A stretch of 64,000 nucleotides of DNA from a bacterium (GTDB lineage: Bacteria > UBA10199 > JADFYH01). The position numbers and the translations under genes are program-made. The DNA lies in NCBI GenBank assembly GCA_046346885.1, contig JAXMHI010000003.1, positions 93 through 64,092 of the forward strand. Reading direction: 5' to 3'. The notes beneath the pieces were generated by a model. That model searched no databases, was not told where the DNA came from, and saw nothing but the letters and a program-made list of their open reading frames with translations. The number at the start of each line of letters is the position of its first letter. Within the stretch, counting starts at the first letter, position 1. Positions 1 to 63,689 of the stretch are shown here, piece after piece.

Positions 1-267
1 GGAAGCGAGCCGCCATAGTGGGGTGCTTCGGGCGAGGGGAGCGAGCGAGAGAACTCCGATTCGCCCCAAGCGAAAGGCGATTCCGCCGAGCATCATGCAT
101 GCGACGGATCTTAAATCGGTCGTTTCTTGGATGAACTCGCTGGTGAAACGGTCGAACTCCGCTTGGGTGGAAGAAACCCGTGAAGTTTCCGCGAGGGAGA
201 GGTGGGAGCATCTCGCAAGAAGCGGCGAGTTTGAGTCTAAAAAAACGTTCTGGGTGTCGAGTGGCAT
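1..267 (-). CDS. First 89 codons of family copy P1 (repeated N-terminal module); the gene runs off the window start
   Basis: My translation from the ATG at 267 gives MPLDTQNVFLDSNSPLLARCSHLSLAETSRVSSTQAEFDRFTSEFIQETTDLRSVACMMLGGIAFRLGRIGVLSLA. It aligns with the N-termini of 401..6010, 19332..23138 and 57337..59319. It is missing from the ORF track because it has no stop inside the window. Confidence 0.6.
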   Translation of the reverse strand, partial: MPLDTQNVFLDSNSPLLARCSHLSLAETSRVSSTQAEFDRFTSEFIQETTDLRSVACMMLGGIAFRLGRIGVLSLAPLARSTPLWRLAS

Positions 268-400
268 TCCACGGATCACCCCTGTGCCCGGCCTTCGGGT
301 GACGCAAAATGAAAAACGGTTATAGAAGCGTTTTCGGGGATTTTGAAGGAAGGTTGTGCGAAATTCCCTCGAGGAAAAGGCGACCGATTCACCGAAGAGA

Positions 401-3400
401 TCAGTGGGGCAATCTGCGGCCGAATAAATCGGCGAGCAAATCGTTAAAGTGGTCGTCGTGATTCACTTCCATCCGCTCCAATTGAGGAAGGAGTGCCTGG
501 CGGTGTTCGAGGTAGAAAATGGCTAAGGATTGCAACCCTTGCCTCGCGTTCTTTTGATACAATTCAATCTCCTTATTCATGTTAGGGAGATCCAATAAGT
601 CTGCTTTTTTGAGGAGTTGCAAGGTTAGAAGCAGGCTGAAATAAAGCGAATTTTCGCTTCGGCCACGGAAGCCGGGGGCATCGCGATAGCGATTTTCGAA
701 CATTTGAAGCGCTCCCATGGGTATTCTTTCAATCTCGGGTAATGAGGCGAGAATGGCCGGATAATTCAAGCCGTTTAAGAATTTTCTCCTTTCCCCTTGA
801 TAGGCGGCGATCAATCGGTTTCGAAAGGCCGGCAAGAGCAGGCTCGGAGAAACCCCCAAATACATTAAGCGCCCGCACAGGGGGTAATAGGCGCGGCTGA
901 ATTGGGAAGCGGCGTGCTTTTGGTCTTTGGTCGCCATGATGAGCTGCATCAAAGAAATTGAAAAATACACCATGAACGACGTTTGTTTTCTAGTTCGCAG
1001 GTCGTCTTCCGTGGGAGAGGGTTTTCTCCAGAGTTCGATCAGGTATGCCCTTTCGTTTTTGATATCCTCCTCCGAGCTGGGTTGAAAATGGGGGAGTTCC
1101 CACAGATCTCCTAAAATTCTCTCGTCTTCCCGCCAAGACTCTTCGAGGTAAGGCATGTCGCGGAGGGGCGTGTTCCAGACTCCGCTCCTGTTCTTGAGGT
1201 AAAAGGTGAGGATGCGATGGGAGAGGCCCGCGGGATTTTCCCCGGCGGGCACGGTAAAGAGCATTTGTAGGAAAGCGTTTCTCGCAGGGTGGCCTTCCTC
1301 CAATCTTAAGAGACGATGGGCCGCTTTTACCGTGGTTTCCATGCCCGGAATGCGCAGGGTGGGCACGTTTTGCAAGAAATCCGGCAAAAGAGGTCCTCGG
1401 TCGTTCATCCCTCGGATTTCGGGGAAGGCGGAAAGCAAGGCTTGCAGTTTTTCGGGAGAGGCGGAGAGAGATCTTAAATATTCTCCTCGCGCCTTCTCAT
1501 ATATCCTCGTCAGCTCCCGGGTCCTTTGGTGGAGGTAGTGGGGCAGGCTCACCCCTTGCGCGGCGGCCAGGCCCGCATCCCATAGTTCACGGAAGATCGC
1601 GGGAACGTCTCGGGGGGCGCCCTGATCTCGGGTTAAGAGATTGACGGGAAGATAGCTCAATTTTAAAAAGAGATAGCTCAGTTGAGGCAACTCGATTTCC
1701 GCGAAGCCCCGGAAGCGCTCCAGTAGGATAGGAATTCCCTTTTCGATTTGGGCATCCGTCCGCTGAAAGTCCAACTCGGGCATCTCCCGCTCCACTTTTT
1801 CGCGCAGGGCGGGGAGGGGGCGGGATAAATCGAGTGGGGCCTGTTCGGCGTCGGAAAAGGAAATTTCAGGCGAAGCTAAGATGGCCTCGCGGTGTTTCAA
1901 ATAAATTTCGGTTTGTCTTTCAAAAAGGGGAATCAGCAGGTCTTCTATTTCCTGTCGACATTTTTGGACATCCTCCGCGAACGGGGCGGGTTTGCCTTCC
2001 ACGAAACCCCTGGCGTCGAACTTCTCGCTGATCAGATCTAGAAATGATTTTCCCGACATGTCCTTTTCCGTCATGTGTTGCCGGGCGGCCCTCACCAACT
2101 CCTTTTCCGCCTCCCGAGGGATCTCTCTTCGGGTGATGAAGCGGTTCATCGCTCTTGCCGCTTTCGCGCCTTGCAAGGGAGGACCGTCTCCGCGGATTTC
2201 CGGGAGAGCTCCCAAGCGATCGAATAGAGAAGCGGGAAGCGACGGGGGATTTTCGACGGGGAAAACTTCCGTGTTAGGGGCGACGGCCTCCGCAATGGCG
2301 ACGGGGGCCTCGCCCTCTTCGGAGGAGGCTTGAGCTTCGCTGACGGTTTCCCACGACTCGATGGCCTCTAAAATCCGCTCCGATAAGAGCCTTTCCGGAC
2401 GGTGGAGGAAGTGATCGAAAAATCGCTCCAAATCCCGCAGGCGAAGGACCACTGCGTGCGAATCGGTCAAGTCTTTCTGGTCTACTCGCGCGCAATCGGA
2501 AAAATCCTTCCAAAACTGGGCCGTTTCCCGGTGGGTGACGGCCGCATCGACGGCGAGCGTGAAATTTTCCTCCAAGCTTCGGTATCGGTGCGAAAAATGG
2601 TTCAAGAGCTCTTGATAGATCACCTCGTAACCCTTGGCCACGTCTTCCCGGATGGAATCGTACGGGGCGAAGCGGTCGCCGACCGTCCGCAGGATGAGGG
2701 CTCTCAGCGGAAGGGGTTCCGGTCGGAAGAGGTGCGAGAAGGTGTGCTCCCGAAAAATTCGCTGAAGATCCCGTCCCAATTGCGCGGAGTCGTGAAAGCC
2801 GCTGTGGTAACGATGAAGGGAGACGAATTCGGGGATGAGCCACGAAAGGGCTTCCATGCTGCGTTCGTGGAGGTGGATTTGGTTCACCAGAACCCGGAGC
2901 AAATCCAAAGCGTAGGGTGAGTCTTCCGCGACGATCTGAAGTTCGGACAATCGTTCTTGGGCTTCCCGCAGGGAATGTTCAATTTGGGCCGGGGCGGGGC
3001 GTTCCCCCGTTTCCAATGTTTTCAGCAGAGGAGGCAGCGCGGCATACAGGAGCGGTTCGAAGAGCGTCCCTTCCGCTTCCGGAAATTGTCTTAAGTATTC
3101 TCCGATTCGGCCTTGCACCCAACGCTCCAAGCCTTGCGGCAAGAAAGGATCCGAGTCGTTTGTCCTTCTCGCCTCCAATCCGTAGATGCGGAGGACGGGA
3201 TTTCGAGAGTTGTATTCGGTGATCCTTTGATCGAGCTGTCGAAGAACGTTTTCCCTTTCGAAGTGGGGAAAAGACGGGAGCCTCTCTTCTAATATTTGAT
3301 GAATCAGCGCTGCGTCGTTCACCAATCCTCCCCGGGTGGTAAAGGGGTGGAGGCGGTAAAATTGATGGAGGTAATGGGCGAAGACCGCGTCGGAGAAGCC

Positions 3401-6010
3401 CTCGAGGCTTAAAGGAGCGGCTTGTCCGTTCTCGCCGGTGGGAAGCCCCACCCGTCTCATGAATTTCAAGAGCGGTGCGCGGAGAGCGGAAGGTTCGAAA
3501 TTCGAGGTGGGAGGAAGGTTTCGAACGATCGCCTCGTCTAACTTCTCCCCTTCGAAGCGAAGAAAGGGATGGCGCACATTCGCGAAATAATGCTCGAAGG
3601 CGGAGATGAACGGTACTGTCCGTTCGCCTAAGTTTTCCTCGCCGGCGAAGAAGGCCAGGTCCCGCCTCCAGTTTACGGATGCATGCGCGGGGAGGGCCGG
3701 TTCCGAATTTCCCCGGGTGAGGCGGTGGAAGAGCAGGCGCGAAGAGGGGTCGATGACCGGCGCGCTCCAAGAGGCGCCTTCCCGCTCCATTCGTTCGAAA
3801 CGTTGCCAGGTTTCCGGAGAGGGCAACGGGAGACCGTGGGAATTGAGGAAGCTTTCCATCAGGTTTCGGTGAAATTTTGGATGGGTTCCCCCGGGCAATA
3901 GCAGGTAACGCTCCGTCATGAGGGAGCGGAGGATCCTCAGCCGGACGATTTCCTGGAATTGGGCCGGCGAAAATTCACCCGAACGGGAGGCCAAGTCTCC
4001 CAAGACGACGGTTGCGCGAATTTCCGCCGAAAGAGGGTCGGCGGGCGCGAAGAGGACGCCGAGCGGTTGGGAGGAAGTGGGCGAGATGCCCTCGTAGCGG
4101 ATGGTTTGGTTTTTCAGCCGGATTTCTCCGCGGGTGCGGGCGTGCACGTAGGTCGCCTCGAAAAAACGAAAAAATTCCCGGTAAAAATTCTGCATCGCCC
4201 GCACGCGGTGGGGGGAAACCCAGGCGGGGTTTTGCCGAAGGTTCGCGAGGAGGGAGGCGTGTTCCGCGTGAGACTTTCGAAACTCTTCCAGCCGCCCCGA
4301 TAAATTTTCCCGCGTGATTTCCCCGGAAGGGAGCGGGATCTCTTCCATGCCCGTAAGCTCGAATTCGCGCATTCTTCCGTCCAACAAGCGAAAGGCTTCG
4401 TCCACCGTGCCGTCGACGGCGGAAGCGAAGGGCTCCCGCTCGAAAGGAATGCGGCGCGTGGTATCCAGGGAACGCAACGTTTCGCCGCTAGGTGCCAGGA
4501 CGATGCGGTAGCGGGAAGGTTTTTCGGAGGGTGCGTGAAGGGATTCGCCGTCGGCTCCCACGATGGGCATCGTGGTCTCGAAATAATTCCGGTAGCGCAG
4601 GAAGGTGAGGAAACGGTGTATTTCTTCCCTTTGTTCCCCGTTCGTCGAAAGCGCTTCTGCCAAGCGATCCAAGTTTTCCAAGTGCATTTTTCTCGTCCGG
4701 CCCTGCCGGTATTCGGACGCGGTGTTTTCGCTCACTTTCCAGGAGCGCGCCAAATCTCCGTCGGTGGCCCTTTCCGTCGCTTGCAGGCGTCCGCGAAGGA
4801 GGGTTTCAAGATTGAGATGGGCGTAATCGAGCTCCTTCATTTCTTGGGGAAAGCGAAGAATGAGGTCGCCGTTTTCGTCCGGTTCGAAACCTCGGAATTG
4901 TTCAGGGTGGGTGAGGCGAAGCGCGTCGAAGGGGTCGATCTCGAAACCCCGCGATCCGCCGTTAAGATAGCGGAGTACGCCTAAGAGAAGGTGGAGATCG
5001 CCGGGAACGTGCGGCCGTTCCCCTTCCTTTCCTTTGGAACCCCAATGGAAAATCGTGGCGCCGGTGACACCCAAATCCGCCGCGCTCAACTCTCCGCGGG
5101 TGATTTCGAGGCGGGTTAAGTATTCGCCCCAGCGCTCGCCGGGAAGTGGGATTTCGGGCCTCACTGGTGTTTTCGTAGACGCTTCCGAAAGAGGGCGGGG
5201 AAGGGCGTTGTTTTCTTGGGTCGGGTCTTTGATGGAGCTCATCCAGACCTGCGAGGGGGCGTTCACAACTTCAGAAGGGTTTTCATGAGTGGAAGAAATC
5301 TCAAGGGAGCCGGTTGCGGGTTGAAACCCTTCTTGTGGCCCTTCCAAAGAACGTAGGGGGAGGGGGGCTTCCGGCGTTTCCAACCCGGATTCGAAGGCAT
5401 GGATCCCCGGCATCACGAAATGGGCGAAACCCATTCCCACTCCCAACTGAAGATTGGTGGCCTCCGCGTGAAGGAATTGTTGCGCCAGTGTGCCCTCGGG
5501 TGCGGGGCCGAGCCCAAGCCTCGCCGTGAGATGATTGCCCGCCACCATCGCGGTATCTTGAAAGAGATGTTGTGCGATCACGTTTTGTCCCACCGCCGCG
5601 GCGCCGCCGATTTTGAGGAGGCCGAAGTTGAGGAATGAGGCGCGCCATCGATGCCAAAAACCCCCTTCTCCAGTCGAGGGAGTAGATTCCGGACGTAAAA
5701 TTCCATTCATCGCTTCAAACACCGTCACTTCGTTCGCCAATCCGATCGTATTGGCAAGCAAACGGAGGGGCAATCTTTGAGATCCTAAAATGGACATTGC
5801 TCCCATGCGCCCCAAACGGTACGCCACTCCCCCGGCCATCATGGCGGCCATCGAGCGCCAATCGGTGGCTTCCTGCACGAAATGGCTCACGAGGCCGTCC
5901 ATTTGCGCTTGCGCGGAAAAGAGGCGGGATTCTTGCGCGAGGGAAGTTTGGGAAAAGCGGAGAAGAAGCGTCTCGGAAGCGGAGAAAGAAAGTGAAGTGC
6001 CGGCAGTCAT
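401..6010 (-). CDS. 1869-aa protein, family copy P2: N-terminal module (aa 1-215), Pro/Ser linker, two XRE-like HTH motifs, then about 1400 aa of unrecognised sequence
   Basis: A single uninterrupted 5.6-kb ORF with an ATG start. N-module blocks include WRSMAAMMAGGVAYRLGRMG, WHRWRASFLNFGLLKIGG, GQNVIAQHLFQDTAMVAG and PEGTLAQQFLHAEATNLQL. HTH-like segments are ELSAADLGVTGATIFHWGSKG and GDLARSWKVSENTASEYRQG. Confidence 0.85.
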   Translation of the reverse strand: MTAGTSLSFSASETLLLRFSQTSLAQESRLFSAQAQMDGLVSHFVQEATDWRSMAAMMAGGVAYRLGRMGAMSILGSQRLPLRLLANTIGLANEVTVFEAMNGILRPESTPSTGEGGFWHRWRASFLNFGLLKIGGAAAVGQNVIAQHLFQDTAMVAGNHLTARLGLGPAPEGTLAQQFLHAEATNLQLGVGMGFAHFVMPGIHAFESGLETPEAPLPLRSLEGPQEGFQPATGSLEISSTHENPSEVVNAPSQVWMSSIKDPTQENNALPRPLSEASTKTPVRPEIPLPGERWGEYLTRLEITRGELSAADLGVTGATIFHWGSKGKEGERPHVPGDLHLLLGVLRYLNGGSRGFEIDPFDALRLTHPEQFRGFEPDENGDLILRFPQEMKELDYAHLNLETLLRGRLQATERATDGDLARSWKVSENTASEYRQGRTRKMHLENLDRLAEALSTNGEQREEIHRFLTFLRYRNYFETTMPIVGADGESLHAPSEKPSRYRIVLAPSGETLRSLDTTRRIPFEREPFASAVDGTVDEAFRLLDGRMREFELTGMEEIPLPSGEITRENLSGRLEEFRKSHAEHASLLANLRQNPAWVSPHRVRAMQNFYREFFRFFEATYVHARTRGEIRLKNQTIRYEGISPTSSQPLGVLFAPADPLSAEIRATVVLGDLASRSGEFSPAQFQEIVRLRILRSLMTERYLLLPGGTHPKFHRNLMESFLNSHGLPLPSPETWQRFERMEREGASWSAPVIDPSSRLLFHRLTRGNSEPALPAHASVNWRRDLAFFAGEENLGERTVPFISAFEHYFANVRHPFLRFEGEKLDEAIVRNLPPTSNFEPSALRAPLLKFMRRVGLPTGENGQAAPLSLEGFSDAVFAHYLHQFYRLHPFTTRGGLVNDAALIHQILEERLPSFPHFERENVLRQLDQRITEYNSRNPVLRIYGLEARRTNDSDPFLPQGLERWVQGRIGEYLRQFPEAEGTLFEPLLYAALPPLLKTLETGERPAPAQIEHSLREAQERLSELQIVAEDSPYALDLLRVLVNQIHLHERSMEALSWLIPEFVSLHRYHSGFHDSAQLGRDLQRIFREHTFSHLFRPEPLPLRALILRTVGDRFAPYDSIREDVAKGYEVIYQELLNHFSHRYRSLEENFTLAVDAAVTHRETAQFWKDFSDCARVDQKDLTDSHAVVLRLRDLERFFDHFLHRPERLLSERILEAIESWETVSEAQASSEEGEAPVAIAEAVAPNTEVFPVENPPSLPASLFDRLGALPEIRGDGPPLQGAKAARAMNRFITRREIPREAEKELVRAARQHMTEKDMSGKSFLDLISEKFDARGFVEGKPAPFAEDVQKCRQEIEDLLIPLFERQTEIYLKHREAILASPEISFSDAEQAPLDLSRPLPALREKVEREMPELDFQRTDAQIEKGIPILLERFRGFAEIELPQLSYLFLKLSYLPVNLLTRDQGAPRDVPAIFRELWDAGLAAAQGVSLPHYLHQRTRELTRIYEKARGEYLRSLSASPEKLQALLSAFPEIRGMNDRGPLLPDFLQNVPTLRIPGMETTVKAAHRLLRLEEGHPARNAFLQMLFTVPAGENPAGLSHRILTFYLKNRSGVWNTPLRDMPYLEESWREDERILGDLWELPHFQPSSEEDIKNERAYLIELWRKPSPTEDDLRTRKQTSFMVYFSISLMQLIMATKDQKHAASQFSRAYYPLCGRLMYLGVSPSLLLPAFRNRLIAAYQGERRKFLNGLNYPAILASLPEIERIPMGALQMFENRYRDAPGFRGRSENSLYFSLLLTLQLLKKADLLDLPNMNKEIELYQKNARQGLQSLAIFYLEHRQALLPQLERMEVNHDDHFNDLLADLFGRRLPH

Positions 6011-6135
6011 GCGAAGTTCGACCGTGTGCCCCGGCGGTTCGTGATTTTTTAATATTCGTAAGAGATTTCGCTCATTTTCGCAACCTCCCGCACAAAGTTG
6101 CGTTTAAAAAATAACTGTTTTAGAAAAGGGGCCTT

Positions 6136-10549: not shown

Positions 10550-13500
10550 ATGAGTCCCGTCACGGGTCAAATCGACAACCGCTATTCTGTTATCCGCATG
10601 TTGGGTGAAGGGTTCACGGGAGAAGTATATTTAGTGGAGTCTTCGGAAGGCCGTTTCGCGCTGAAACTTCTCAAGCCCTTTTCCGATCGGCGTCTCGAGG
10701 AAAGCATCATCCGTGCTTTTAAATTCGAGTTCGGTTTTTTGAAGGATTTGAGACACCCGAACGTGGTCCGTATCCAAGATTTCGGGTTCGACGATACGCT
10801 AAGACGGTTTTACTTTACCGAAGAATATCTCGACGGGAAGCCGCTCAACGATTTTTGCAAGGGCGCCTCCCCCGAGCTGATCGGAAACCTTTTCATCCAA
10901 TCGATCGAGGGACTCCAAGCAATTCATCGGGCCCATATTCTTCACGGCGACCTTAAAGGCAGCAATCTTCTGGTGATCGAAGAGGAAGGCGGTCCGGTTA
11001 TCAAGATCATCGACTTGGGCCTTTCCGATCCCCGTTTTCCCTTTACCGCCGGTACGCCCTCGACGATGGCGCCGGAGAAGATTTTGAAAGACCACGTGGA
11101 CGAGCGCTCCGATCTTTATTCGTTGGGAGTGGTCTTCTACCAGATCTTCACCGGATCAAATCCCTTCATCGGGAAAAACGTGAAGGAGACTTACCAAGCC
11201 CATCTCGCTCTGAGACCGCCCAAGATCACCTTGAAAAATCCCCAGGTACCTTCTTATTGGAACGAGATTTTCGACTGCCTGCTCGAGAAGAACCCCGCCC
11301 ACCGCTACCGGGACGCGGGCGCGCTGCTCGAGGCTATCGACTTCGCCAAGCCGCAAAAAGCGGGGAAGAAAAAAGTAAAGCCCTGGCGGCCCGAGCGTTG
11401 GGTGGGGCGCGAAAAGATCGTTGAGGAAGTGAGCGGGAAGCTGAAGGCGTTCTTCGAGAAAAAAAACGGCCCCGCGAAGGTTTTATTGCTCTTGGGCGAG
11501 AAAGGGGTGGGGAAAAGCCGCATCGTACAGGAAGTGAAGTATCTTTTCCAAATGGAGAAAGTGGAAGTGTTCGAGTCGAAACCGGGCAGCCTCTTTCCCC
11601 CGTCTTCGGAAGAGCCTCTTCTATGGGTGGTCGACGAGGGATCGCGTTTTTCGCCGGAGGAGCGGTCGCAGATATTAATCAAGATGGAAAAAAATTCCCC
11701 GTCTTGGGCGGCGCTTCTCTCCCTTTTGCCGGAGGAGGGGGAAGATCTCCTTTCCGACTTCGAGAAAAAGGGGGTCGAGGTTTCCAGCGTCACCGTTCGC
11801 CCCTTCACGCGCGAGGACTTAAACGAGTTTTTGAAGGAGCTCACCGACGTGAAGGAGGTTCCCGATCCGTTCTTGGACGGCTTGTGGGAGAAGACTCACG
11901 GCAATCCCCGTCTGGTGATCGGCCTGCTTGAACACTTGGTCGCGGACAAACGGCTGGTCGACGCCCGCGGCCATTGGAACCTTTCCATTTTCAAGGAGGG
12001 CGGCTTCGATCTGAGACCCTTGCCCTTGGACCTCTCCGAGATCGACCAAGCTTTGGTCATCTTGCCTGCGGGCGATCACAAGAATCGCACCGAATTGTGG
12101 ATCAAGCGCAGCGAAGAGCTCCTTAAAAAGAATTTGATCGACGAAGCGAGCGAGTCGTTAAAAAAAGCGGAAGAGGAAACCCAAAAGGTTCAGGACCTCT
12201 CCCAAAAACTCCACTTCCGCTCGCGCATCTACGAGAAGGAGGGGTGGAAGCTCATCCGCGAAGGCCACTTCGACGAGGCCCACAACCGCATGGAGCGGGC
12301 CCTCGCCCTCTTGGAAGAAAGCACGGTGATGGACGAGGTGCTTGAAATCCGCCTCCATAATTTCGTTGCTTGGCTCTATTGCCAGGAGGGAAAGTTCGAC
12401 GAGGCCATCACGCTCTTCGAGGAACAGCAGCGTCGTGCGGAAAAACTTCCCCCTGCCGAACAGCAGCGCGTCCTCAATAACGAATTGGGGCAGGCGTATT
12501 TGATGAAAGGGGATCTGAAGCGGGCGATTTTCTTCCTCGAGGCGGCCTTCGATTTTTACGAGAAGGTCGGCGACTTGCCCAGCCGCATGAAGGGGCTCTA
12601 CAACTTGGCGGAAGCGCACGCGCAGGCCAAAGATTATTCCAGGGCGATCCAGTATTATCTGAAAGCCGCCGAGATGTCGCGATTCCACCGCAACTTCGAG
12701 CTTTTGCTGCGTGCCTACAATGGCTTGGGGAAAACTTTCCACCTTCAAGGGAACTACAACGAGGGCTTGAGTTATTACGAGCGCGCCTTGGAACTTGCCC
12801 GCTATCTCGAAGATTATTTGAGCGCCGCGGCCATCGCGCAAAACATCGGTTCCATCCAGTCGGAGCGTGGGGATTTCGAACCCGCCGATGCCCACTTCGA
12901 GCTTTCGCTCAAGATGCTGCGCAAGCTTTCCCAATTGAACGCCCACGCCAAATACCTCATCTGCCGAGCTTTGCTGGAGAAGGGCGATCTCTACCGCAAG
13001 CAGAAGAAATTCAAGGACGCGGAAGAGCTGATCCGCGACGCTTTCCAGCTCACCCAACAGGAAAGCTCCCTCGCTTCGTTCCGTTTCTGGGTGCTCTACA
13101 CCCAGTCGCAGTTGGAAAGAGACCAAGGGAATTTCGAGAAACTCAAAGACCTCATGGCCGAGCTGATGCCTCTGGCCGACGACGGCGAGAAGCGGGATCG
13201 TTGCCGCGAGTTGCTGCAGGACAAAACGATGACGCCGGTAGTGGCCCCTGCAGAAATCCATCGCACCCGCGCCGAAGCCATTCCCGCCTCACCTTCCCGT
13301 TCGGGGGCCTTGGAGGCCTTGATTCGGGTGGCGCGCTGGCTCGCCTCCGAAAAGGATCCCGAGCGGCTCTTGCCCCTCATCATCCGCCAGGCAACCGAGC
13401 TTTCCGGGGCGGAGGCGAGGTCGTGCTCTTGGAAGACGCGGGAGGCAAGATGGTCCCGCGCGCGAGCGTAAATTTGAGTTTGAACGAAACGCTCGCCCAG

Positions 13501-15079
13501 ATGAGCCAGAAGATGGCCGCTCAGGTTCTGGCTACGGGAGAGGTATTGCAGACGGGCAATGCCCAGCAAGACGACCGTTTCCGCATTTACGAATCCGTGG
13601 TGGATTTGGGGCTTCAATCGATTCTCGCCCTGCCCATCCGCAGCGAAAATCGGGTGATGGGCGTTCTCTCCCTGGTGCACCGCCACCGGATGAACGCATT
13701 TCAGGACGTCTCTCTCGAGCTCATGCTCGCCTTCGCCGACCAGGCGGGGATTGCGCTCGAGAACGCCCGTTTGGTGAAGAGCTTGGAAGAGGCGCAAGGT
13801 CGCCTGTCTAGGGATCTCCAACAAACCCAAGAAGAGCTGGATGAGGTCCGCCGGAATATTTCCGGGGCCGAGGTGCTCAAGCGTTTCATCGGCGAGAAGC
13901 TCATCAGCGGAAACAAGGCGATGGGCGAGTTGTTCAGCGTGGTGGAACGTCTGCGCGACACCGATCTTTCCGTGTTGCTTCATGGCGAATCGGGGACGGG
14001 CAAAGAACTTATCGCCCGCTCCCTCCACCGCAAGTCGCGGCGCGCTGCGAAGCCGTTCGTGGCGGTGAACTGCGCGGCCTTGCCGGCCAACCTCATCGAA
14101 AGCGAGCTCTTCGGTTACCGGGCCGGCGCCTTTACCGGGGCCACGCGAGACAAGAAAGGGCTCATCGAGGCGGCCCACGAAGGCACCCTCTTTCTCGACG
14201 AGATCGCCGAACTCGAATTGCCCCTGCAAGCCAAGCTGCTGCGCGTGCTCGAAGAGCGGGAGGTGACGCGCTTGGGGGACGTGAAACCCGTTGCCGTCGA
14301 TTTTCGCCTCATTTCCGCTTCGCACCGGAACTTGAAGGAAGAGATCGTCCTGCAGAAATTCCGCGAGGATCTTTTTTACCGCATCTGTGAGATCGAGCTA
14401 AAATTCCGCCGCTGCGCGAGAAAGGAAGATATCCCGCTGTTGGCTCAGGCCTTCATCGACGAATATCTCGGCAAAGAAGGGGGCGCAAAGAGAAGAAGGA
14501 GGAGGAGGAGAGGTGCGTTTAAGGAGGGATCTCTTAAAGCTTCTCATCGATTATTCTTGGCCCGGCAACTGAGGGAGTTGGAAAATGTGATTCGCGTCGC
14601 CACGGCGCTGCGCAAAGGGAGCATTTTGCACACCGAAGACGTTCCCGAAAGCGTGCGGGCTTCGTGGGGCGATGCGAAGAAAAAGGCATCGGCGATCTCC
14701 CCGCCGGAACCCCTCGCGACTTTTCCCCAAACGCCTCTCCTTCCACTTTGTTCGACCCGAAAAAAAGTTGGCAAGAAATGGAGACGGTGGCCCTCGCCAA
14801 ATCCCTCCTCCATTTTGGTTTCGACGTGAAAAAAGCCTCGGAGGCCTTAGGCTGCGCGGTTTCGAAGCTCTATCAGCGGATGCGGGAGTACGGGCTCGAA
14901 AAGCGGAAAGATGAATTTCAAACCCATCCTTTCATTTATTCTCCCAAGAGAGCTTCTTTGGAAACCCTCAAGCGGCAAGTGTTTGCGGGGCTTTAAAATA
15001 TTGTGAGAACAGCCCCTATCAAGCCGCCCGCCTTTTGAAAGTGAGTCCGGGGATGGTGTATCAGTGGATGCGTTCTTAA
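10550..15079 (+). pseudogene. Ser/Thr kinase - P-loop NTPase - TPR - GAF - sigma54 AAA+ - HTH regulator (EBP1), broken by at least 5 frameshifts (sequence error or pseudogene)
   Basis: Parts lie in ORFs 10550..13471, 13201..14829 and 14664..14996, plus an untracked tail ending LKYCENSPYQAARLLKVSPGMVYQWMRS* at 15079. It is collinear with intact paralog 46612..51369. Motifs: HGDLK, GEKGVGKS, GESGTGKE, GAFTGA (14125..14142), and DYSWPGN/RELENV split by a frame change. Confidence 0.8.
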
Positions 15080-17373: not shown

Positions 17374-18420
17374 ATGTTTACACGAGATTTTTCATTCGAG
17401 TACCCGCAAGAATTGGTCGCCCAAGAGGGCCTCGCCGAGCGCGACGCCTCGCGCATGATGGCGCTCGACCGAGGCCGTCAAACCATTGCCCATCGGGTGT
17501 TTCGCGACTTACCTTCTTACTTCAATAAAGGCGACCTGCTTTTGCTCAACAACACCAAAGTCCTGCCCGCCCGGCTGTGGGGAAGGAAAAAGTCCGGCGG
17601 AAAGGTGGAGATCTTGCTCATCCGCCCTTGGCGAGGGCAGGCGTGGGAGTGTTGGGTCCGCTCTCTCAAGGGTTTGCAAGACGGAAGCGAGATTTTATTT
17701 TCAAGAAACGGCGCCGACTTCGCCGCCCGATTGCGTTTCGAGCCGGAAGAGAACCTAAAGACGATCGAGTTTCCTCCCGACGTTCCGGTTCTCGATTTCA
17801 TGCGCGAGCAAGGGGCGGCCCCTCTCCCGCCTTACATTAAGCGTCCGGAACCCCGAGTCGGCGACCGCGAACGCTATCAAACCGTCTTTGCCGAAAAAGA
17901 AGGGGCGATCGCCGCGCCGACCGCGTCGCTCCATTTTACGCCCCGAATCTTGAAAGAGCTTTCCGAGAAGGGAGTGGAAATTCGATATCTCACCCTTCAC
18001 GTGGGCATCGGCACCTTCCAGCCGGTCACCTCGGAAAATGTGGAGGATCACCGGATGCAGGAAGAGTTTTACGAGATTTCCGAAGAAACGGCGGAGGCCG
18101 TTCGGTGGGCAAAACGGGAAGGCCGCCCGGTGACGGCCGTCGGGACCACTTGCGTGAGGGCGGTAGAGTCTTATTTTCAAGATCCTTCCGTCGTTCCACC
18201 ATCGCCGGGGACGCTTCTCTCCACGCGGCTTTTTATCCATCCCGGCTATTCTTTCCAAATCGTCGACCGCTTTCTCACCAATTTCCACCAGCCGGAATCG
18301 ACTCCCCTTTTCTTGACGAGCGCCTTCGCGGGAAAAGAATTCCTCTTCCGCGCCTACGCGGAAGCGATCCGAGAGAAGTATCGCCTCTTCAGCTACGGCG
18401 ACTGCATGTGGATTTTCTGA
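17374..18420 (+). CDS. queA: S-adenosylmethionine:tRNA ribosyltransferase-isomerase
   Basis: 348 aa. FDFxYPxELIAQ-like N-terminus, VLPARL, PLPPYI and HFTP motifs, typical length. Confidence 0.9.
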   Translation: MFTRDFSFEYPQELVAQEGLAERDASRMMALDRGRQTIAHRVFRDLPSYFNKGDLLLLNNTKVLPARLWGRKKSGGKVEILLIRPWRGQAWECWVRSLKGLQDGSEILFSRNGADFAARLRFEPEENLKTIEFPPDVPVLDFMREQGAAPLPPYIKRPEPRVGDRERYQTVFAEKEGAIAAPTASLHFTPRILKELSEKGVEIRYLTLHVGIGTFQPVTSENVEDHRMQEEFYEISEETAEAVRWAKREGRPVTAVGTTCVRAVESYFQDPSVVPPSPGTLLSTRLFIHPGYSFQIVDRFLTNFHQPESTPLFLTSAFAGKEFLFRAYAEAIREKYRLFSYGDCMWIF

Positions 18421-19331: not shown

Positions 19332-22300
19332 TTAGGGAGGAGGAAACTCAATCACCAAACGAAAGGTTCCATTGTATTCATCGGCCACATCCATATGGAC
19401 GTAAGTTCGAGAACAAGGGAGGGGTTGATTGCCTGAGGGAGTTCTCACGGATGCACCGGACATGACGATCGCATCGTTTTCCGCCACCGTGGAAGTAAAC
19501 TCACGCACGTTTCCAATCAAATCCAGTAGTCTTTGAATCCGGCCCTGCGCGTCCCGATATCCAAAAATGGAAAAGTCTCGGTAAAGGTCGGGGCCTAAAG
19601 GATGGGTGCCGATGGGGTGGGAATGGGTTCCTTTATCTAGATCGGCGTGTACCAGACGCGAAGCGAAGAAAGTTCTGCGGTAACGGTAACCCCATGGGAA
19701 GGACCAATCGAAGGTGTTGCGGGCGGCGATCTCTTTTTGTTCCGCAGAGACGATCTTGTAATTCCGTCGGTCGCGCACCGACCTCCAGTATCGATAAGCG
19801 TCCGCCGCTCGGTACGGAATTGCATGAATGGGTTGATTGTTCAAGATGGGGTCGCCACGGAGCGAGGGATGACTCGTGGGATCCGCAAGAGTAAAGATAC
19901 GATTTTGACCTTCTCCTTCGGACCGGATCCTCCAGTGGAACCGGGCGCCTTCGAACGCGGTTGCGAGAACCGATTCCCAGTCGGGGTTTTCGGGAAGGTT
20001 CCGGGGAGAGATCCGAGGTTGATCCCGCGGGATCAAATTTCTCAGCCGTTCAATGTGTCGGAAGGCCTCTTCGAATCGCCCTTGTCCGACCAGATGATTG
20101 ATTCCCCTCAATTGGCTTTCGATGAAGAGGCGGTATTCCCCCACGGTGATGGGATTGGAAATGGCGAAGGTGTTGAAGGAATGGGGGCGTTCCGGAAAAC
20201 TGATGACGAGGGCGGGGTCGTCGAAGCGATAGATATTATGTCCGATGACGCCTTTTCCGCCATGAACGAGTGAGAAGCCTTCGGGAACCGGCGGGGTCAA
20301 GCGCAGGTTCAAGTTTAGGGAACCCCGAGTGGCCGAACCCCGGTTTAAGATTCCTTGTCGAACTTGCGGAAGTGTGATGCGCAGAGGATAACGCATAAAC
20401 GCATAATCGGGATGCGATAGCTCGAGCACGTAGTACCCTGCCGGCAAGTTGAGTCGGTCTTGAATGTCGCTTAAGTTTCCTTCCAGAAGGGGAGCCCCTT
20501 CCCGGAAATAATCTTTTTCATATTCTTCGATGGGAATCACCCGCGCTTGGACATTTTCAGGGGTCATTTGGGGGTTTAAGTGGTCGGATATTTTTAATTG
20601 AACGCGGATTTGTCCTTCCAGCGCGTCCTTCATGCTGGTGGTGCGCTCGTTTTCCGTCGCCACGTCGTATTCGCGGATACGGTCGATGAGGGTTTGGCGC
20701 ACCTCGTCGGGCATCGTGTTGTCGGCATTGACGAGCCTCATCCAAGAGAGTTCGGCGATCATCTTTCTCGCCTCGGGCACGGGATCGGAATCGGTCAAGC
20801 GTCTGAGTTCCTGCACCGCGCTTTCCACCGCCTGGTCGAAGGCCGCCGGAATGTTCTTGAGGGCGTACAGAGGATCCAACATGCGTTTTTCCAAGTCTTC
20901 AGTGATCGGACGGTCGGTGCGATATTCACTCCAAGCGGCGTGAAGTTCTTGTTCCAGAGACCTGCGTCTTTCCAGCAGGCGGCGGATACGGATCATTTCG
21001 GCGCGGCCCCAAACAAGCAAAAGCGCCTCGCGTAATTTGCCGGCCGATTCAAAGCGTCGGGTCGGATCCGGGTCTAAGGCCCTTCGGCAGACTTCCTCGA
21101 TTTTATCGTAAAGTTCGAGTGGGTAGTCTCCCTGTATGACGTCCCGAAAGGCCGGGGGCTGCAGGAAGAAGTCGGGATGGGTGGAGAAGAAGCGTGCCTG
21201 TGACCCGTTTCTCCCATGGGTAAACGGGTTCTGCCCCGTTATCATTTCATACAGGATGGCACCCAAGGCGAAAACGTCGATGGAGCGCGGGTTTTCAATT
21301 TTCCGGTTTAGAAACCTCTCGGGGGCGATATAGCCTGGTGTTCCAAAAGAGACGCCCACCAGGGTAATGTCCTTTTCAAGGCGGTGAAAAAGTTCCGGAG
21401 AAACTTCTGGTCGGGGTTCGGCGGGAAGTTCCTCGAACGCTTTAGCCAAGCCCCAATCGACGATCCGGACCTCGCCGGTATCGGTGATACGGATATTGCC
21501 GGGCTTCAAGTCGCGGTGGACGATGCCGTCTCGGTGGGCGGATTCGATCCCCTCGCAAATGCGTAGAAAGATGTCGAGCTTCCTTTGGGCGCTGAGCGTC
21601 GACATCACGTCCGAGAGGTCGTTGCCGGGCAGGTATTCCATCACAGGAACGGTACGGCCATTGGGGAGCGTGATGAAGTCGTAGATCACGACCACGTGCC
21701 GTCGATCCATATTGGCGGTAATTTTTACCTCGTTGCGAAAACGAGCGTCCACTTCCACCGTATCTTTTTGGCTGCGATCCCGTTCGGGGCGCGGCACTTT
21801 GATCACCGCCAGACGCTCCAATTGCAGGTCTCTTACCTTGATCACGTGTCCGTAGCCGCCGGAGCCTAGATAATCCAATACTTGGTAGCGGCCTTCCAAC
21901 TCCATTCCCACTTGCAAGCCGGTTTCTTCCGGAGGAAGTCGCGTGACCAAGGATTGGGCTTCTTTTCGAGTGTCATGGTCGACGTCGGTCGGGTCTTGGG
22001 GGGCTTCCGGAGCTGGAGAAGGGGCCGCTTTTTGCCGAGGAACGGGAACGGCCACTCGTGTTTGGGCTTCTTGGGGGTCTTTGGCCGGGGAAGCAGCGGG
22101 GGAAGGAGGAGGAATTTCCGGGCGTTGTTCCACGACTTCCGCCGCCGGAGCGTCTAACGTGGTTGCGAGTTTCGGATCGGCGGGAGGAGTCGCCGGACGA
22201 GGGGGTGAGGGAGGAGAGTCCTTCCCCGCCAATTCGGGCGGACCGCCGACCATCGTAGTGGTGGCGGGTGCGTCGCGATTCGTGGGGAAACCGCTGTCCG

Positions 22301-23138
22301 CGGGTCCGTCGGGCTTATCCTTGTCATGGATGGAGGACATGGCGACGATGAGAGGACCCTTTTCCGGAAAAACTCGGTCTCCGCTTCTTCGTCCTTCGAG
22401 GTTCCCCCTCTGTCCGGTGGCGAGAGCCCAGGGAGCTCCTTCGCCTTCCGAATCGAAAAAGGAACTTCTTCCTTCCGTTTGGGGCGTTCGAAGGGTGAGT
22501 TCCAAGCCCCGTTCCAAGGCGGGAAGCCCCGGCGCGAAGGTGTGCACCAGGCTCATGCCGAAACTTAATTGCAAATTGGTGATTTCCGCGTGGAGAAATT
22601 GCTGGGCGAGCGTGCCTTCGGGCCCCGGAGAAATTCCCAACGCCGCGGTGGCGTGGTGGCCCAGCACCATGCCGGTGTCTTGCACGAAATGTTGAAGGAT
22701 GACGTTTTGGCCTTCGGCCAAGTGGCCGGCGAATTTCAAGGTTCCGAAACTGACGAACGAGTTGGCGAGCCCCTCGCGAAATCCGCCCCGGCCGTTCCAA
22801 CGCCAAAGATTGGGGTTGGAGGCGCCTTCGCCCGATAGGCCGAGCAGCGAGCGGTGGCTGGTTTCAAAGGCCAATACTTCGGCGCTTAATCCGATTCCGT
22901 AGGAAGCGGTTTGAATGAGGGACGCGGCTTGCCCCGCCCGGGAGGCCAAGGCCATCGTGCCGATTCGACCGAAACGGTAGGCAAGCCCGCCTATAGACAT
23001 GGCGGCCAAGCTTCTCCAATCGCTCGCCTGCTCCAAGAAGCCGCTGACCAAGCCATCCACTTGAGATTGGGCGGAACTCGGCTCCGCATAAGAGGCCAGC
23101 GTGTGAGAAGACAGCCTACTAAGAACCGTTTCCGTCAT
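19332..23138 (-). CDS. Family copy P3: N-terminal module, about 190-aa Pro-rich linker, Hanks Ser/Thr kinase, middle region, C-terminal FGE/SUMF1-like domain (1268 aa from the internal ATG)
   Basis: The start is moved to MTETVLSRL (ATG at 23138) by alignment with the other copies. Kinase motifs are GSGGYGHV, AVIKV, HRDLKPGN, DWGLA and GTPGYIAPE. The C-terminal HAIPYRAADAYRYW...FPWG...HPIG...GNVREF resembles FGE-sulfatase domains. Confidence 0.85.
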   Translation of the reverse strand: MTETVLSRLSSHTLASYAEPSSAQSQVDGLVSGFLEQASDWRSLAAMSIGGLAYRFGRIGTMALASRAGQAASLIQTASYGIGLSAEVLAFETSHRSLLGLSGEGASNPNLWRWNGRGGFREGLANSFVSFGTLKFAGHLAEGQNVILQHFVQDTGMVLGHHATAALGISPGPEGTLAQQFLHAEITNLQLSFGMSLVHTFAPGLPALERGLELTLRTPQTEGRSSFFDSEGEGAPWALATGQRGNLEGRRSGDRVFPEKGPLIVAMSSIHDKDKPDGPADSGFPTNRDAPATTTMVGGPPELAGKDSPPSPPRPATPPADPKLATTLDAPAAEVVEQRPEIPPPSPAASPAKDPQEAQTRVAVPVPRQKAAPSPAPEAPQDPTDVDHDTRKEAQSLVTRLPPEETGLQVGMELEGRYQVLDYLGSGGYGHVIKVRDLQLERLAVIKVPRPERDRSQKDTVEVDARFRNEVKITANMDRRHVVVIYDFITLPNGRTVPVMEYLPGNDLSDVMSTLSAQRKLDIFLRICEGIESAHRDGIVHRDLKPGNIRITDTGEVRIVDWGLAKAFEELPAEPRPEVSPELFHRLEKDITLVGVSFGTPGYIAPERFLNRKIENPRSIDVFALGAILYEMITGQNPFTHGRNGSQARFFSTHPDFFLQPPAFRDVIQGDYPLELYDKIEEVCRRALDPDPTRRFESAGKLREALLLVWGRAEMIRIRRLLERRRSLEQELHAAWSEYRTDRPITEDLEKRMLDPLYALKNIPAAFDQAVESAVQELRRLTDSDPVPEARKMIAELSWMRLVNADNTMPDEVRQTLIDRIREYDVATENERTTSMKDALEGQIRVQLKISDHLNPQMTPENVQARVIPIEEYEKDYFREGAPLLEGNLSDIQDRLNLPAGYYVLELSHPDYAFMRYPLRITLPQVRQGILNRGSATRGSLNLNLRLTPPVPEGFSLVHGGKGVIGHNIYRFDDPALVISFPERPHSFNTFAISNPITVGEYRLFIESQLRGINHLVGQGRFEEAFRHIERLRNLIPRDQPRISPRNLPENPDWESVLATAFEGARFHWRIRSEGEGQNRIFTLADPTSHPSLRGDPILNNQPIHAIPYRAADAYRYWRSVRDRRNYKIVSAEQKEIAARNTFDWSFPWGYRYRRTFFASRLVHADLDKGTHSHPIGTHPLGPDLYRDFSIFGYRDAQGRIQRLLDLIGNVREFTSTVAENDAIVMSGASVRTPSGNQPLPCSRTYVHMDVADEYNGTFRLVIEFPPP

Positions 23139-23228
23139 AAGAAAAAAAGGGAAATGCCTGAAAAATAAAAAATTATTCGATTGCCCTTCCTCTTCGGCAA
23201 CGCTTAAGAGAAGGTGCGAGGAAATTTT

Positions 23229-24370
<1,142 letters not shown>

Positions 24371-29450: not shown

Positions 29451-29564
29451 AAAATAAAAAATAACGCAATGCGCAAAAAAGAGGGTTGACATGAGTTGAC
29501 GCGACGTGTTACCCCTTTTTACGAAATCGATTTGTTTTTGTTTTTTCGAAAGGAGGGATCGGTA

Positions 29565-31089: not shown

Positions 31090-31092
31090 AAG

Positions 31093-37091: not shown

Positions 37092-37301
37092 GATCTCTCC
37101 TCTTTTCTCTCATAGTTAACGTAAGCTTTCCCGGGAGGCAACATGCAATTTAGGCGAATGGCCGGGGTTCGAGGCGGCCAAAGTTCTCAAAAACGCCGGA
37201 TTTGCAATGTGGACAAAATCCTTTTATGATAGATAAATTGAATATAGCGCCTGATGCAAGGCCTCTCCCGTCCCGGGAGGAACTCCAAAAGAAAGAAATC
37301 C

Positions 37302-38357: not shown

Positions 38358-38360
38358 ACC

Positions 38361-43716: not shown

Positions 43717-45712
<1,996 letters not shown>

Positions 45713-52962: not shown

Positions 52963-53043
52963 GTCCCCCCTTTTTAACTTATTATACCGTGTTTCACCCA
53001 TCTCTATTATCCGTTTTTTGTCGCATCAAGTTTCGTTTTTTAA

Positions 53044-53080
53044 AGAAAAACTCAATCCCCCTCCCAGCACGGGAGGGGGA
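53044..53080 (-). terminator. Hairpin terminator after 53102..54901
   Basis: TCCCCCTCCC-loop-GGGAGGGGGA, with a T-rich tract downstream on the minus strand. Confidence 0.5.
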
Positions 53081-53101
53081 AGTCGCTGATGCGGGAGATC
53101 C

Positions 53102-59319: not shown

Positions 59320-59440
59320 AATTCACCGTTATCCGTGTGCCTTGCTTTTTAAGTTGGAAAAAGATTGAGGTAAGGCTCGGTCGTCCGAAAGCGAAGTTGC
59401 GGATTATTTTTACGGCGAAACCGAGAGCTTTTTTCGTTCC

Positions 59441-62120: not shown

Positions 62121-62297
62121 AATTCCTCCTCAAGAGATTTTGTCTCTCTCCAACCAACAAGCTTTATCGGCAGTCTCGGCGAAAAGTTGCGGACCGGGAC
62201 TAAGAAAATTGCCTGATTCGAAACGACCGCAACTTCTTAAAATGTGATCCGATATGGCTTTTCGAGGCGGGCTTAGATTTTACCTAGGGGCATAGGT

Positions 62298-63689
62298 ATG
62301 AAATCTAATCCCGCCTTTTATTTTGGGGTCGGCGAAAATTCGGAAAACATTCTCACGCGGTCCTCTAACCTTTCCCAAGCTCCTTCCTTTACGGCGGCTC
62401 AAGAAGGAGCCGATCGAGCGGTTTCTTCTTTTTTGGAAGGCGCGACGGCAGATCCTGACGTTGTTCGCCGATGTCATGGGCGGCCTTGCCTACCGATTCG
62501 GCCGAATCGGTACCCTACTACTCACTTCATTTCAGGAACCGAAGCGGTCTTTTTCCTTTTGGTTCGGGGCGGTTCTTGCCTGGCAGGATTCGGGACTGAA
62601 TCCATGGTTTTCGCAGGGTGCAGCAGGCGTTGAAAAAGCGGAAGGCAAAACTCCCGTCTTAAGCTTTTCACAAGTGGGCTCACGCTGCGCTCACTTTTGG
62701 CTCCTCTTAAAATCCTACCCGCCTTATTTCAGGAGCAAATTTTTCCCCTTCGCCATCTTCTCGCCGATGTCGGCATGATTGCGGGAAGCCATTTGGCATA
62801 CAGTTGAGGCAGGGAGAAACCGAGGAGAGATTGTTTCAGCATTTTTCCTGGCGGGAACGATGAATTGGCAGATGAAGGCGGGCTTGAGGTTTCTATACGG
62901 CGCCGCGCGGTTCGTCGCGTTTGAAGCCGCTTTGGATCTTGAGATCCGTTCGAGGGAATTAAATTTGCCGGTCGGCAAAAGGGCTTTCCGTACTTTTCTT
63001 CGCGGTGAAACAAGGAGCGTTTGAAATTCGCCTACTACCTTTTAAATGTCGGCGGAAGGAGAGGAGGCGGTTCTGGGAAAAAAAGCGGGGGCGGGATTGA
63101 AAAAAATTCCCGCTCCATCAACCCCGATGAATATTCGGAAACCATCTTGAAACTTGCAGCACTGGAACATTGGGAGACCAATCCCGAAGGGAAAATCGAG
63201 ACTCGTTCGTTTGAGGGGATGCTTTCCTCCGATTGCTTGAGCGCCGTCTACACCTCGGGGCCCGGCATTTACCTCTCCAGTTGCGGCGTTCGAATTCCCA
63301 TTCGCGATTTCCAGGCCTTCTGGGACGCCGCCCACTCCCGTGCTTCCGCCCCCAAGACCTTCCAAGAACTGAAAGGATACTATTTCATGGCGGAAATTGG
63401 GAACGAGAGGATCAGGCGTTCCGCTCCCATTTCAGGAACAGGCGGAAGACACATCCATCGGAGAGCGGTCGAAGAATACCGACGGGGAGACGCGGAAGCC
63501 GCCGTCCGGTGGTTGAAAGGAGAGTTGAAACCCTTCGTCGGTAATATTTACGGGGATTCGTTGAATTCCTTCGCCCCTTGGGTTGCCTTTGGTTTGGGAT
63601 TAGACCTTATTCTTGACCCCCGAGTGGCCCATGCGGCGGCGCTGGTTTCGGAGCATTCCTTTCTCCTTCCCTTTTACCCCTCGGGCTGA
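62298..63689 (+). pseudogene. Family copy P5: N-terminal module scattered over at least 4 frames, followed by an open 222-codon C-terminal part
   Basis: Module blocks occur in different frames: RAVSSFLEGATA (frame of 62298), LFADVMGGLAYRFGRIGTLLL (frame of 62323), ADVGMIAGSHLAYS (untracked frame), LFQHF / FLAGTMNWQMKAGL. ORF 63021..63689 continues as the cargo region. Confidence 0.6.

Follow-up and report, generated by a model that had tools for sequence, protein, structure and literature searches.

A conserved helical N-terminal domain on unrelated cargo proteins: a candidate sorting tag in an uncultured bacterium of soil and wastewater

INTRODUCTION

Bacterial protein families that join a constant N-terminal domain to variable C-termini have been described in connection with secretion. 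The mycobacterial PE/PPE proteins, the subject of two reviews (PMC12209268, PMC11395111), are type VII substrates whose head is the sorting determinant. In the LXG, MIX, RIX and prePAAR-TMD heads, an N-terminal domain of ~100–250 aa sets the delivery route, and the C-termini swap by recombination (Zhang et al. 2012, PMC3482391). Here, we analyze a comparable arrangement in a 64,000-nt stretch of a bacterial metagenome-assembled genome (MAG; GTDB lineage UBA10199, JADFYH01; assembly GCA_046346885.1, contig JAXMHI010000003.1, positions 93 to 64,092), hereafter the window. Five of its loci, P1 to P5, carry the same module of ~215 aa (the head), followed by a tether and by C-terminal regions that are unrelated to each other (the cargo). 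An earlier reading of this DNA, the original prediction, had proposed a constant head with variable cargo. This architecture extends far beyond the window, with 94 unrelated cargo clusters among 181 members; relatives do not share one C-terminal architecture. We found that the head is an undescribed domain family, to which nothing in the libraries searched is related in sequence or structure, and that the proteins carrying it are depleted in Cys. We put it forward as a candidate sorting tag and weigh this proposal against its rivals.

RESULTS

Five loci in the window share an N-terminal head

The similar heads predicted at P1 to P4 are present, all on the reverse strand. Those of P2, P3 and P4 are 44–50% identical across ~215 aa, and P1 aligns along its 89 residues (in BLASTP, heads match each other with E-values of 1e-49 to 9e-56, and P1 matches P2 with 5e-16). 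Their Smith–Waterman scores lie 25–78 standard deviations above those of 200 shuffles, and therefore the family is no chance alignment. Past approximately residue 215, BLASTP found no similarity common to the window members, in agreement with the original prediction. Of the four sequence blocks that it had listed, the second (WxRWRxSF) occurs in P2 and P4, but not in P3.

The P2 gene (U1F57_02935; 401..6010, reverse strand) encodes 1869 aa, comprising a head, a tether and a 1,600-aa lineage-specific cargo. On the same strand, its N-terminal box TLLLRFS lies at 5951..5971 (residues 14–20), its helical head module at 5378..5911 (residues 34–211, from QAQMD to FESGLE), its linker (tether) box PSQVWMSS at 5234..5257 (residues 252–259) and its cargo at 404..5188 (residues 275–1869). 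The helix-turn-helix motifs that had been assigned to this cargo are reduced to a weak, sub-threshold HTH_26 match at 4643–4756 (E = 0.0035), while a relative at locus L002 has strong HTH_31 and HTH_3 matches. Downstream of P2, P1 (1..267, reverse strand) consists of the 89 N-terminal residues of a family member whose remainder is cut by the window edge; its N-terminal box PLLARCS is at 205–225 and the start of its head at 151–165 (both reverse strand). In the source MAG, P1 is U1F57_02930, a protein of 119 aa that is partial by annotation and identical to MFO1518610.1.

The P3 gene (19332..23138, reverse strand) encodes 1268 aa. Its longest open reading frame (ORF) begins at a TTG at 23240, but the family's N-terminal box favors the ATG at 23138 instead. 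On the reverse strand, it comprises the N-terminal box (23109–23129), the head (22500–23069), the linker box PLIVAMSS (22332–22355), a Pro-rich tether of ~150 aa (21888–22331), a protein kinase (21051–21887) and an FGE-sulfatase-like domain (19479–20270). The linker and kinase of the original prediction are thus confirmed (Pkinase E = 3e-39), while its FGE-like domain matches only weakly (E = 0.003). The P4 gene (57337..59319, reverse strand; 660 aa) has its N-terminal box at 59263–59283, its head at 58687–59223, its linker box PFIVAMSS at 58501–58524 and its cargo at 57340–58467, all on the reverse strand. As had been noted, this cargo has no known Pfam family, and it has no relative among the 181 sampled cargos.

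The fifth locus, P5, does belong to the family, though its extent is 62277..63689 (forward strand), slightly longer than originally given, and it is a frameshifted pseudogene. Its head is broken into four fragments in different frames within 62277–63021 (profile positions 6–91, 45–80, 129–162 and 169–218), and its cargo remnant consists of a Gly-rich linker and a cargo ORF at 63021–63689.

The head is a self-contained helical domain without known relatives

We modeled the heads of P3 and P4 with AlphaFold, using alignments of 29 and 66 sequences, respectively. Both models have a predicted local distance difference test (pLDDT) score of 90–97 over residues ~31–210 and show a compact bundle of six or seven long helices plus short ones. 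For ~80 residues past the head, the pLDDT falls below 55. According to these models, the head is an independent fold on a flexible tether.

Two short motifs flank the bundle. The Ser-rich leader noted in the original prediction is indeed Ser-rich, but it is not featureless: a conserved box, [ST]-[VLI]-L-x-R-[FL]-S, sits in the first 20–30 residues. After a disordered stretch of ~50 residues, the tether carries a second box, P-x-[IVL]-[LVF]-x-M-S-x-x-[ED]-G-x-G-G, for which 77 of 128 members match a crude regular expression and whose Met is kept in 62 of 66 aligned members. The box ends in G-x-G-G. Double-glycine leader peptides, those of C39-peptidase/PCAT substrates, are short, end in GG and have a C39 ABC transporter nearby; here, a 'leader' would span ~280 aa, and no C39 or ABC transporter gene occurs among the neighbors scanned. 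A Tat signal was rejected, as a twin Arg is present in only 4 of 143 N-terminal boxes and the box is followed by a polar, Ser-rich stretch in place of an h-region.

The composition of the head is unusual for a cytosolic domain. Its grand average of hydropathy is +0.16, with 13.6% charged residues and 40% Gly, Ala, Ser and Thr, compared to −0.39 and 26% charged residues in the cargo. The maximum 19-aa Kyte–Doolittle hydropathy is 0.9–1.1 in the seven heads profiled (P2, P3 and P4 included), and just 5 of 143 family proteins have a window above 1.8, always outside the head. The head is therefore semi-hydrophobic without a transmembrane segment, which suits an interface or a membrane surface. Its low hydropathy rules out an Inc-type bilobed domain or a classical membrane anchor; the 'hydrophobic lobes' of the original prediction are not transmembrane. 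Several polar residues are conserved within the helices (E87, N145, H150, Q180, E185 and Q190). We rejected an internal duplication of the head, as hhalign gave a probability of 0.4% for its N-terminal half against its C-terminal half.

That the module lies outside the named domain families, as first proposed, was borne out in every library searched. At E ≤ 0.1, the head has no match to any Pfam or NCBIfam model, those of PE/PPE included. PDB sequences searched with the head profile gave no matches at E ≤ 10. With Foldseek, the best match of both models against the PDB has an E-value of 0.83–1.2 and a TM-score of at most 0.3, with no known sensor fold (PAS, GAF, globin-coupled or 4HB) matched, and the best match of one model against BFVD has an E-value of 0.15. 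IncA (E = 1.2), Bcl-2, ClyA/MakE and globins appear at chance level only. PADLOC has no match to the head; its only match is the generic kinase domain of P3, and an anti-phage defense role was rejected. Full-text literature searches found no earlier description of the head.

The family is large, and its known carriers are uncultured

We performed an exhaustive HMMER profile scan over 1.84 billion cluster representatives and found 962 relatives at E ≤ 1e-3, of which 467 have E ≤ 1e-30. In the best 150 of these 962, the module begins at residues 1–57 and protein lengths vary from 236 to 3930 aa. One P2-type homolog, P0295 (2199 aa, from an NCBI MAG), has a divergent head at residues 134–346; it is the only clear exception to the N-terminal position among the members examined, and its start may be mis-called. 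With the head profile, a word-index search recovered only 27 proteins, P2 to P4 themselves not among them, because the index undercounts. The four members with NCBI record names are all called 'hypothetical protein'. Clustered at 50% identity, the family comprises about 1000 clusters, and it is missing from Pfam and NCBIfam.

Among 185,579 GTDB species representatives, the search picked up only two MAGs with the head, both labeled 'uncultured Pseudomonadota'. In the JGI metagenomes, we found 66 loci, ~40 of them from one metagenome (Ga0066388); judging by their sample ids, these are apparently soil metagenomes. The carrier is an uncultured bacterium, apparently of soil and wastewater. Head-to-tail arrays of two or three family genes, as in P2–P1, are very common, and pseudogenes also occur. 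We found no relatives in the IMG/VR viral contigs or the PLSDB plasmids, and a mobile-element origin was dropped for that reason.

The recognizable cargo consists of cytoplasmic-type signaling and metabolic enzymes

We surveyed the cargo with Pfam in 60 members (E ≤ 1e-5) and in five further members (E ≤ 1e-6). About 30% of the 60 have recognizable cargo: PAS in four, GGDEF, Pkinase and HATPase_c in three each, and sigma-70 region 2 together with amine oxidase in two and FGE-sulfatase in two (the FGE-like domain at E = 1e-7 or better). A ResIII/DEAD helicase, an aminotransferase, a receiver, HPr, a malic enzyme and a metallophosphatase occur in one member each. The five further members have only fatty-acid synthase (FAS), acetyl-CoA carboxylase (ACC), aminotransferase and malic-enzyme families. 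In other metagenomes, P0159 is a type I FAS of the fungal/CMN (Corynebacterium–Mycobacterium–Nocardia) type with 3930 aa and Fas1/Fas-alpha domains, and P0063 is a multidomain ACC with an ACC_central domain; both have the head at the N-terminus. Repeat proteins, HEAT repeats included, are also among the cargo, and one cargo was read by eye as an AAA-type protein with a VWA-like C-terminus. No toxin domain was found in the 60 and five members scanned, and the 60 include no nuclease, lipase, peptidase or pore-former. The recognizable cargo is of the cytoplasmic type, and about three quarters of it is signal-transduction output (PAS/histidine kinase, GGDEF, Ser/Thr kinase, sigma-70, helix-turn-helix and receiver).

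When we clustered the 181 cargo regions by BLAST, 57 of the 94 clusters were singletons. Certain head–cargo pairings are kept across genomes. The cargo of P3 is common to P0046 and P0076 (BLAST), and P2-type cargo has six members: a word-index search of 5.8 billion proteins found three homologs of the P2 cargo, all head-bearing, and further head-bearing homologs occur in L061, L064 and P0066.

Heads evolve as a cohort, independently of their cargo

On average, the identity between heads is 0.53 when they belong to one cargo type and 0.49 when they belong to different types, and only 37 of 124 nearest-neighbor heads have the same cargo, even with identical duplicates still counted. Head pairs that are 78–96% identical occur on unrelated cargo. 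In particular, P0046 (kinase-FGE) matches P0056 at 91% identity along 219 aa, and the two share nothing beyond; their similarity stops exactly past the last helix (ERGLDLSI), and the region of the N-terminal box is less similar. The helical module is thus exchanged or homogenized as a unit, irrespective of cargo. Such homogenization is expected if every head in a cell must fit one partner.

Proteins carrying the head are depleted in Cys

P2 to P4 have 8 Cys in 3797 residues (0.21%), compared to 108 in 14,181 (0.76%) for 32 other genes of this genome (odds ratio 0.28, p = 5e-5). Family proteins of more than 500 aa (n = 109) have a mean Cys content of 0.17%, and 22 of them are Cys-free; only 5 of the 3930 residues of the P0159 FAS and 4 of the 2504 residues of the P0063 ACC are Cys. 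In other genomes, Cys content is 0.21% in cargo versus 0.78% in other ORFs. The tagged set is thus about four-fold Cys-depleted, which is what an export mechanism would predict.

In this genome, Lys is depleted three-fold (2.3% in the family versus 6.9% elsewhere) and Arg is raised, while in other genomes the effect on Lys is weak (0.82-fold). Compared to their neighbors, the family genes have a lower GC content at third codon positions (GC3) and a higher one at first and second positions. Since GC3 is lower, the bias acts at the amino-acid level, and GC drift is ruled out as the cause of the Lys-to-Arg shift.

A short upstream element and the genomic neighborhood

A short element, GGGCACAC, lies 14–16 nt upstream of the starts of P1, P2 and P4, but not of P3. 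On the reverse strand, it appears as GGGCACA at 283..289 (15 nt upstream of the P1 ATG, within the 133-nt P2–P1 spacer), as GGGGCACAC at 6024..6031 (14 nt upstream of the P2 ATG) and as GGCACAC at 59335..59341 (16 nt upstream of the P4 ATG). GGCACAC or GGGCACA occurs only seven times in the 64 kb. Across the family, GGCAC[AC] is found at most 40 nt upstream of 12 of 66 genes, compared to 2 of 173 control ORFs (Fisher p = 5e-6), and the element is also present at L003, L004, L010, L051, L061, L063 and L065. Its distance from the ATG varies from 1 to 19 nt, with one more match at 37 nt, indicating that it is no simple Shine–Dalgarno sequence. It may be a family-specific operator or translation element.

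We scanned the neighborhood in ~35 window ORFs and in 10 ORFs from five of 71 related loci (L002–L005 and L015). The window neighbors include queuosine genes, SecDF, RecJ, aconitase, leucyl aminopeptidase, Usp and regulators; those at the five loci include a short-chain dehydrogenase/reductase (SDR), QueG, GTP cyclohydrolase I, an aminotransferase and TPR proteins. Directly downstream, P2 is followed by P1, P3 by a HEAT-like ORF and P4 by a PHP-domain gene. In the window and the 71 loci, no neighbor family recurs beyond generic kinase/sigma-54 regulators and SDR (three times), and apparent recurrent neighbors turned out to be shadow ORFs over the heads. As the original prediction had stated for the window, no secretion-system genes occur among its ~35 ORFs; neither they nor the 10 neighbor ORFs include ESX, type III apparatus, VgrG, PAAR or Eag genes.

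P3 lies within a scattered queuosine set of QueA, TGT, QueC, DUF366 and a radical-SAM gene (17374–18420, 23214–24047 and 30388–32402). In an unrelated MAG, the L002 locus (13126–14740) has a family gene with different cargo immediately upstream of those for QueG and GTP cyclohydrolase I. This proximity to queuosine genes may be a coincidence or conserved synteny. The closest named relatives of the window's QueA are from 'Deltaproteobacteria bacterium' MAGs (58–59% identity).

Downstream of P4, the region 51469–57358 (reverse strand) encodes proteins of 510, 599 and 454 aa without a Pfam family and the PHP-domain protein. The 599-aa protein is Cys-free, and there is a 22-nt overlap between the PHP gene and the stop of P4. 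This run may form an operon with P4; no homologs of it were found beside family genes elsewhere.

Several other window genes were recorded. A single 1585-aa protein at 46612–51369 (reverse strand) combines a Ser/Thr kinase with AAA_16/STAND-like, TPR, GAF, sigma-54 activator and HTH_8 regions. A kinase-TPR protein at 10550–13471 is followed by a GAF-sigma-54 activator at 13201–14829 (both forward strand). Giant proteins of the kinase-TPR and kinase-GAF-sigma-54-activator types are typical of Myxococcota-like signaling. A Cpn60/TCP-1 chaperonin of 556 aa at 43717–45387 (reverse strand) has a relatively low score (Pfam E = 6e-83) and may be a divergent GroEL paralog. At 37254–38636, ORFs of 367 aa (forward) and 411 aa (reverse) overlap on opposite strands; the 411-aa ORF is rich in Arg, Ala, Gly and His, resembles a shadow ORF and had no Pfam family when scanned. 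Finally, a 202-aa protein at 29496–30104 (forward strand) with 13.9% Lys has a borderline match to phasin, a polyhydroxyalkanoate-granule protein, which may hint at storage granules in the organism.

DISCUSSION

A candidate sorting tag

A folded N-terminal head, a flexible tether with its own motif, apparently any cargo, many paralogs, evolution as a cohort and a compositional purge together point to a sorting tag. On this evidence, we regard it as evenly balanced whether the head is a lineage-specific tag that directs diverse proteins to a single site chemically unlike the bulk cytosol. All heads in a cell would be read by the same partner. Candidates for this partner are a receptor or translocation machine, a membrane surface and the heads themselves. 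Diverse cargo would thereby be brought to a common destination with a chemistry unlike the bulk cytosol, and the tether box would act as a second docking site or as a processing site. We infer the role of the head as a recognition or targeting device, and likewise the common destination and its nature.

The destination could be reached by export from the producer's cytoplasm or by sequestration at an internal site or membrane face, and we give these two roughly equal odds. Export, by analogy with PE/PPE or LXG heads, is favored by the depletion of Cys and Lys, the low charge of the helical head and the dynamics of a multigene family. An internal site is favored by the scarcity of transmembrane segments and by cargo that needs a bacterial cytoplasm (sigma factor, histidine kinases, GGDEF, HPr, FAS and ACC). 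Delivery into another cell's cytoplasm reconciles both sets of observations, though it is unprecedented for such cargo.

Several points weigh against a sorting tag. In the two AlphaFold models, neither the N-terminal box nor the tether box is docked on the head. The neighbors are ordinary housekeeping genes, with no receptor or machinery among them and no recurring family. The Cys depletion might have another cause, and the predominance of signaling outputs also fits a sensor domain. Moreover, we infer the localization of the tagged proteins purely from sequences of an uncultured organism.

Secretion substrates or an intracellular scaffold

Two narrower explanations, one for export and one for an internal site, are each possible, though both seem to us rather unlikely as they stand. 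According to the first, the proteins are non-classical secretion substrates or effectors: the head would be the export domain of an unrecognized route, and the cargo would act outside the cell or inside a prey or host cell that supplies ATP and cofactors. The four-fold Cys depletion is in line with this explanation, as is the three-fold Lys depletion with compensating Arg in this genome. So are a low-charge, Ala/Gly-rich helical head without a signal peptide and a multi-copy family with tandem arrays, pseudogenes and homogenized heads. Cleavage could take place at the conserved tether box, and the eukaryote-type FAS I, ACC_central, kinases and HEAT repeats recall 'eukaryote-like' effector sets. 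However, a sigma-70 factor, a PAS-histidine kinase with a receiver, GGDEF and HPr are sensible only in a bacterial cytoplasm, and a 3930-aa FAS I is implausible as a substrate. The absence of nuclease, lipase, peptidase and pore-forming cargo among the 60 members, and of secretion-system genes among the window and neighbor ORFs scanned, also argues against secretion. In addition, the Cys bias reported for type III substrates is only weak (PMC3589343), which lends weak support to a Cys bias in effectors.

According to the second, the head is an intracellular tether or scaffold element that would dock on the inner membrane face, on a scaffold of cytoskeletal or polar type or on further heads, forming a hub for signaling and lipid synthesis. 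The cytoplasmic-type cargo accords with this, and a transmembrane-like segment is present in only 5 of 143 proteins. In particular, kinases, histidine kinases and GGDEF proteins, which are normally anchored by transmembrane segments, here lack them. Long and flexible tethers, a semi-hydrophobic head surface and heads that co-evolve as a cohort are likewise consistent with a scaffold. By itself, however, a scaffold does not account for the avoidance of Cys in every tagged protein, nor for that of Lys in this genome, and no scaffold gene was identified in the neighborhood scan.

A sensor domain or a toxin system

A new sensor or input domain, in which ligand or cofactor binding would control the output as in PAS, GAF or globin-coupled sensors, is improbable. 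It would explain why about three quarters of the Pfam-recognizable cargo is signaling output and why many polar residues are conserved inside the head's helices. Yet a disordered, poorly conserved tether of 50–200 aa is incompatible with rigid helical coupling; the cargo includes FAS I, ACC, helicases, an AAA-type protein and many repeat proteins; and neither head homogenization nor cargo Cys depletion is predicted by a sensor, to which no structural match was found among known sensor folds.

The analogies first drawn, with polymorphic toxins, type III effectors or Inc-like proteins, would fit the constant heads reassorted onto variable unrelated tails and the Ser-rich N-terminus, but are very improbable. 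The members scanned contain no toxin domain, no immunity gene recurs downstream of the loci and a bilobed transmembrane domain is absent (hydropathy ~1.1 at most in the heads profiled). The conserved N-terminal box is unlike type III signals, and the IncA, Bcl-2 and ClyA-type matches are at chance (E > 0.8, TM-score ≤ 0.3).

Implications of a sorting tag

If the head is a sorting tag, the family is a ready-made client list for a targeting pathway new to bacteria, with hundreds of clients in the lineage as a whole and dozens per genome. Its composition is odd, as it includes a type I FAS, a multidomain ACC, sigma factors and second-messenger enzymes, and such a pathway would therefore be either a new form of cell-to-cell delivery or a new internal organization. 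A bolder proposal, which we hold somewhat short of evenly balanced, is that the head marks the clients of an undescribed sorting system and delimits a Cys-purged subset of the proteome. That system would either export or inject a broad set of regulators and enzymes (sigma factor, XRE-type HTH proteins, kinases, GGDEF, helicases, FAS and ACC) by which a soil bacterium takes over another cell, or serve a new internal compartment or hub with its own redox or acylation chemistry. The Cys purge is a quantitative signature that could reveal other hidden sub-proteomes. With no detectable structural neighbor among solved or viral predicted structures, the head is a good target for structure determination; it is also a candidate portable targeting module.

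Comparison with known systems

Like the mycobacterial PE/PPE proteins, the present family is multi-copy and combines a helical, Ala/Gly-rich and Lys-poor N-terminal head (110–180 aa in PE/PPE) with a linker and highly variable C-termini, a few of which are enzymes; in both, the genes are often adjacent. However, neither Pfam PE (PF00934) nor PPE (PF00823) matches the present head, which is a self-contained domain of 6–7 helices, whereas the PE/PPE hairpin pairs with a partner. The present cargo is mainly cytoplasmic enzymes and regulators rather than repeats. The present organisms are also most similar, by one marker gene, to MAGs labeled 'Deltaproteobacteria', a group not known to have ESX systems.

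The polymorphic toxin and type VI and type VII effector heads likewise combine a constant N-terminal domain with exchanged C-termini, and a trait of polymorphic toxins, swapped C-termini on near-identical heads, is present here (P0046 and P0056, 91%). The prePAAR effectors have Gly-rich, moderately hydrophobic N-terminal helices. Unlike these systems, the present head is matched by no model for a signal peptide, TPS (two-partner secretion), PAAR, VgrG, LXG, WXG or MIX, its cargo is non-toxin in the members scanned, and no immunity, VgrG, PAAR or Eag genes occur among the neighbors scanned. The chlamydial Inc proteins and type III substrates are also lineage-specific and multi-copy, with no Sec signal and a Ser-rich N-terminus, but Inc proteins are defined by a bilobed transmembrane domain of 40–60 aa that is absent from the present family by its hydropathy profile.

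The PEP-CTERM/exosortase, GlyGly-CTERM/rhombosortase, type IX secretion C-terminal domain and Tat systems share with the present family the use of one tag on dozens of unrelated proteins, limited to the lineages that own its reader. Their tags are short peptides or an 80-aa C-terminal beta-sandwich, or come with a Sec or Tat signal, whereas the present tag, with no signal peptide, is a folded helical N-terminal domain of 215 aa.

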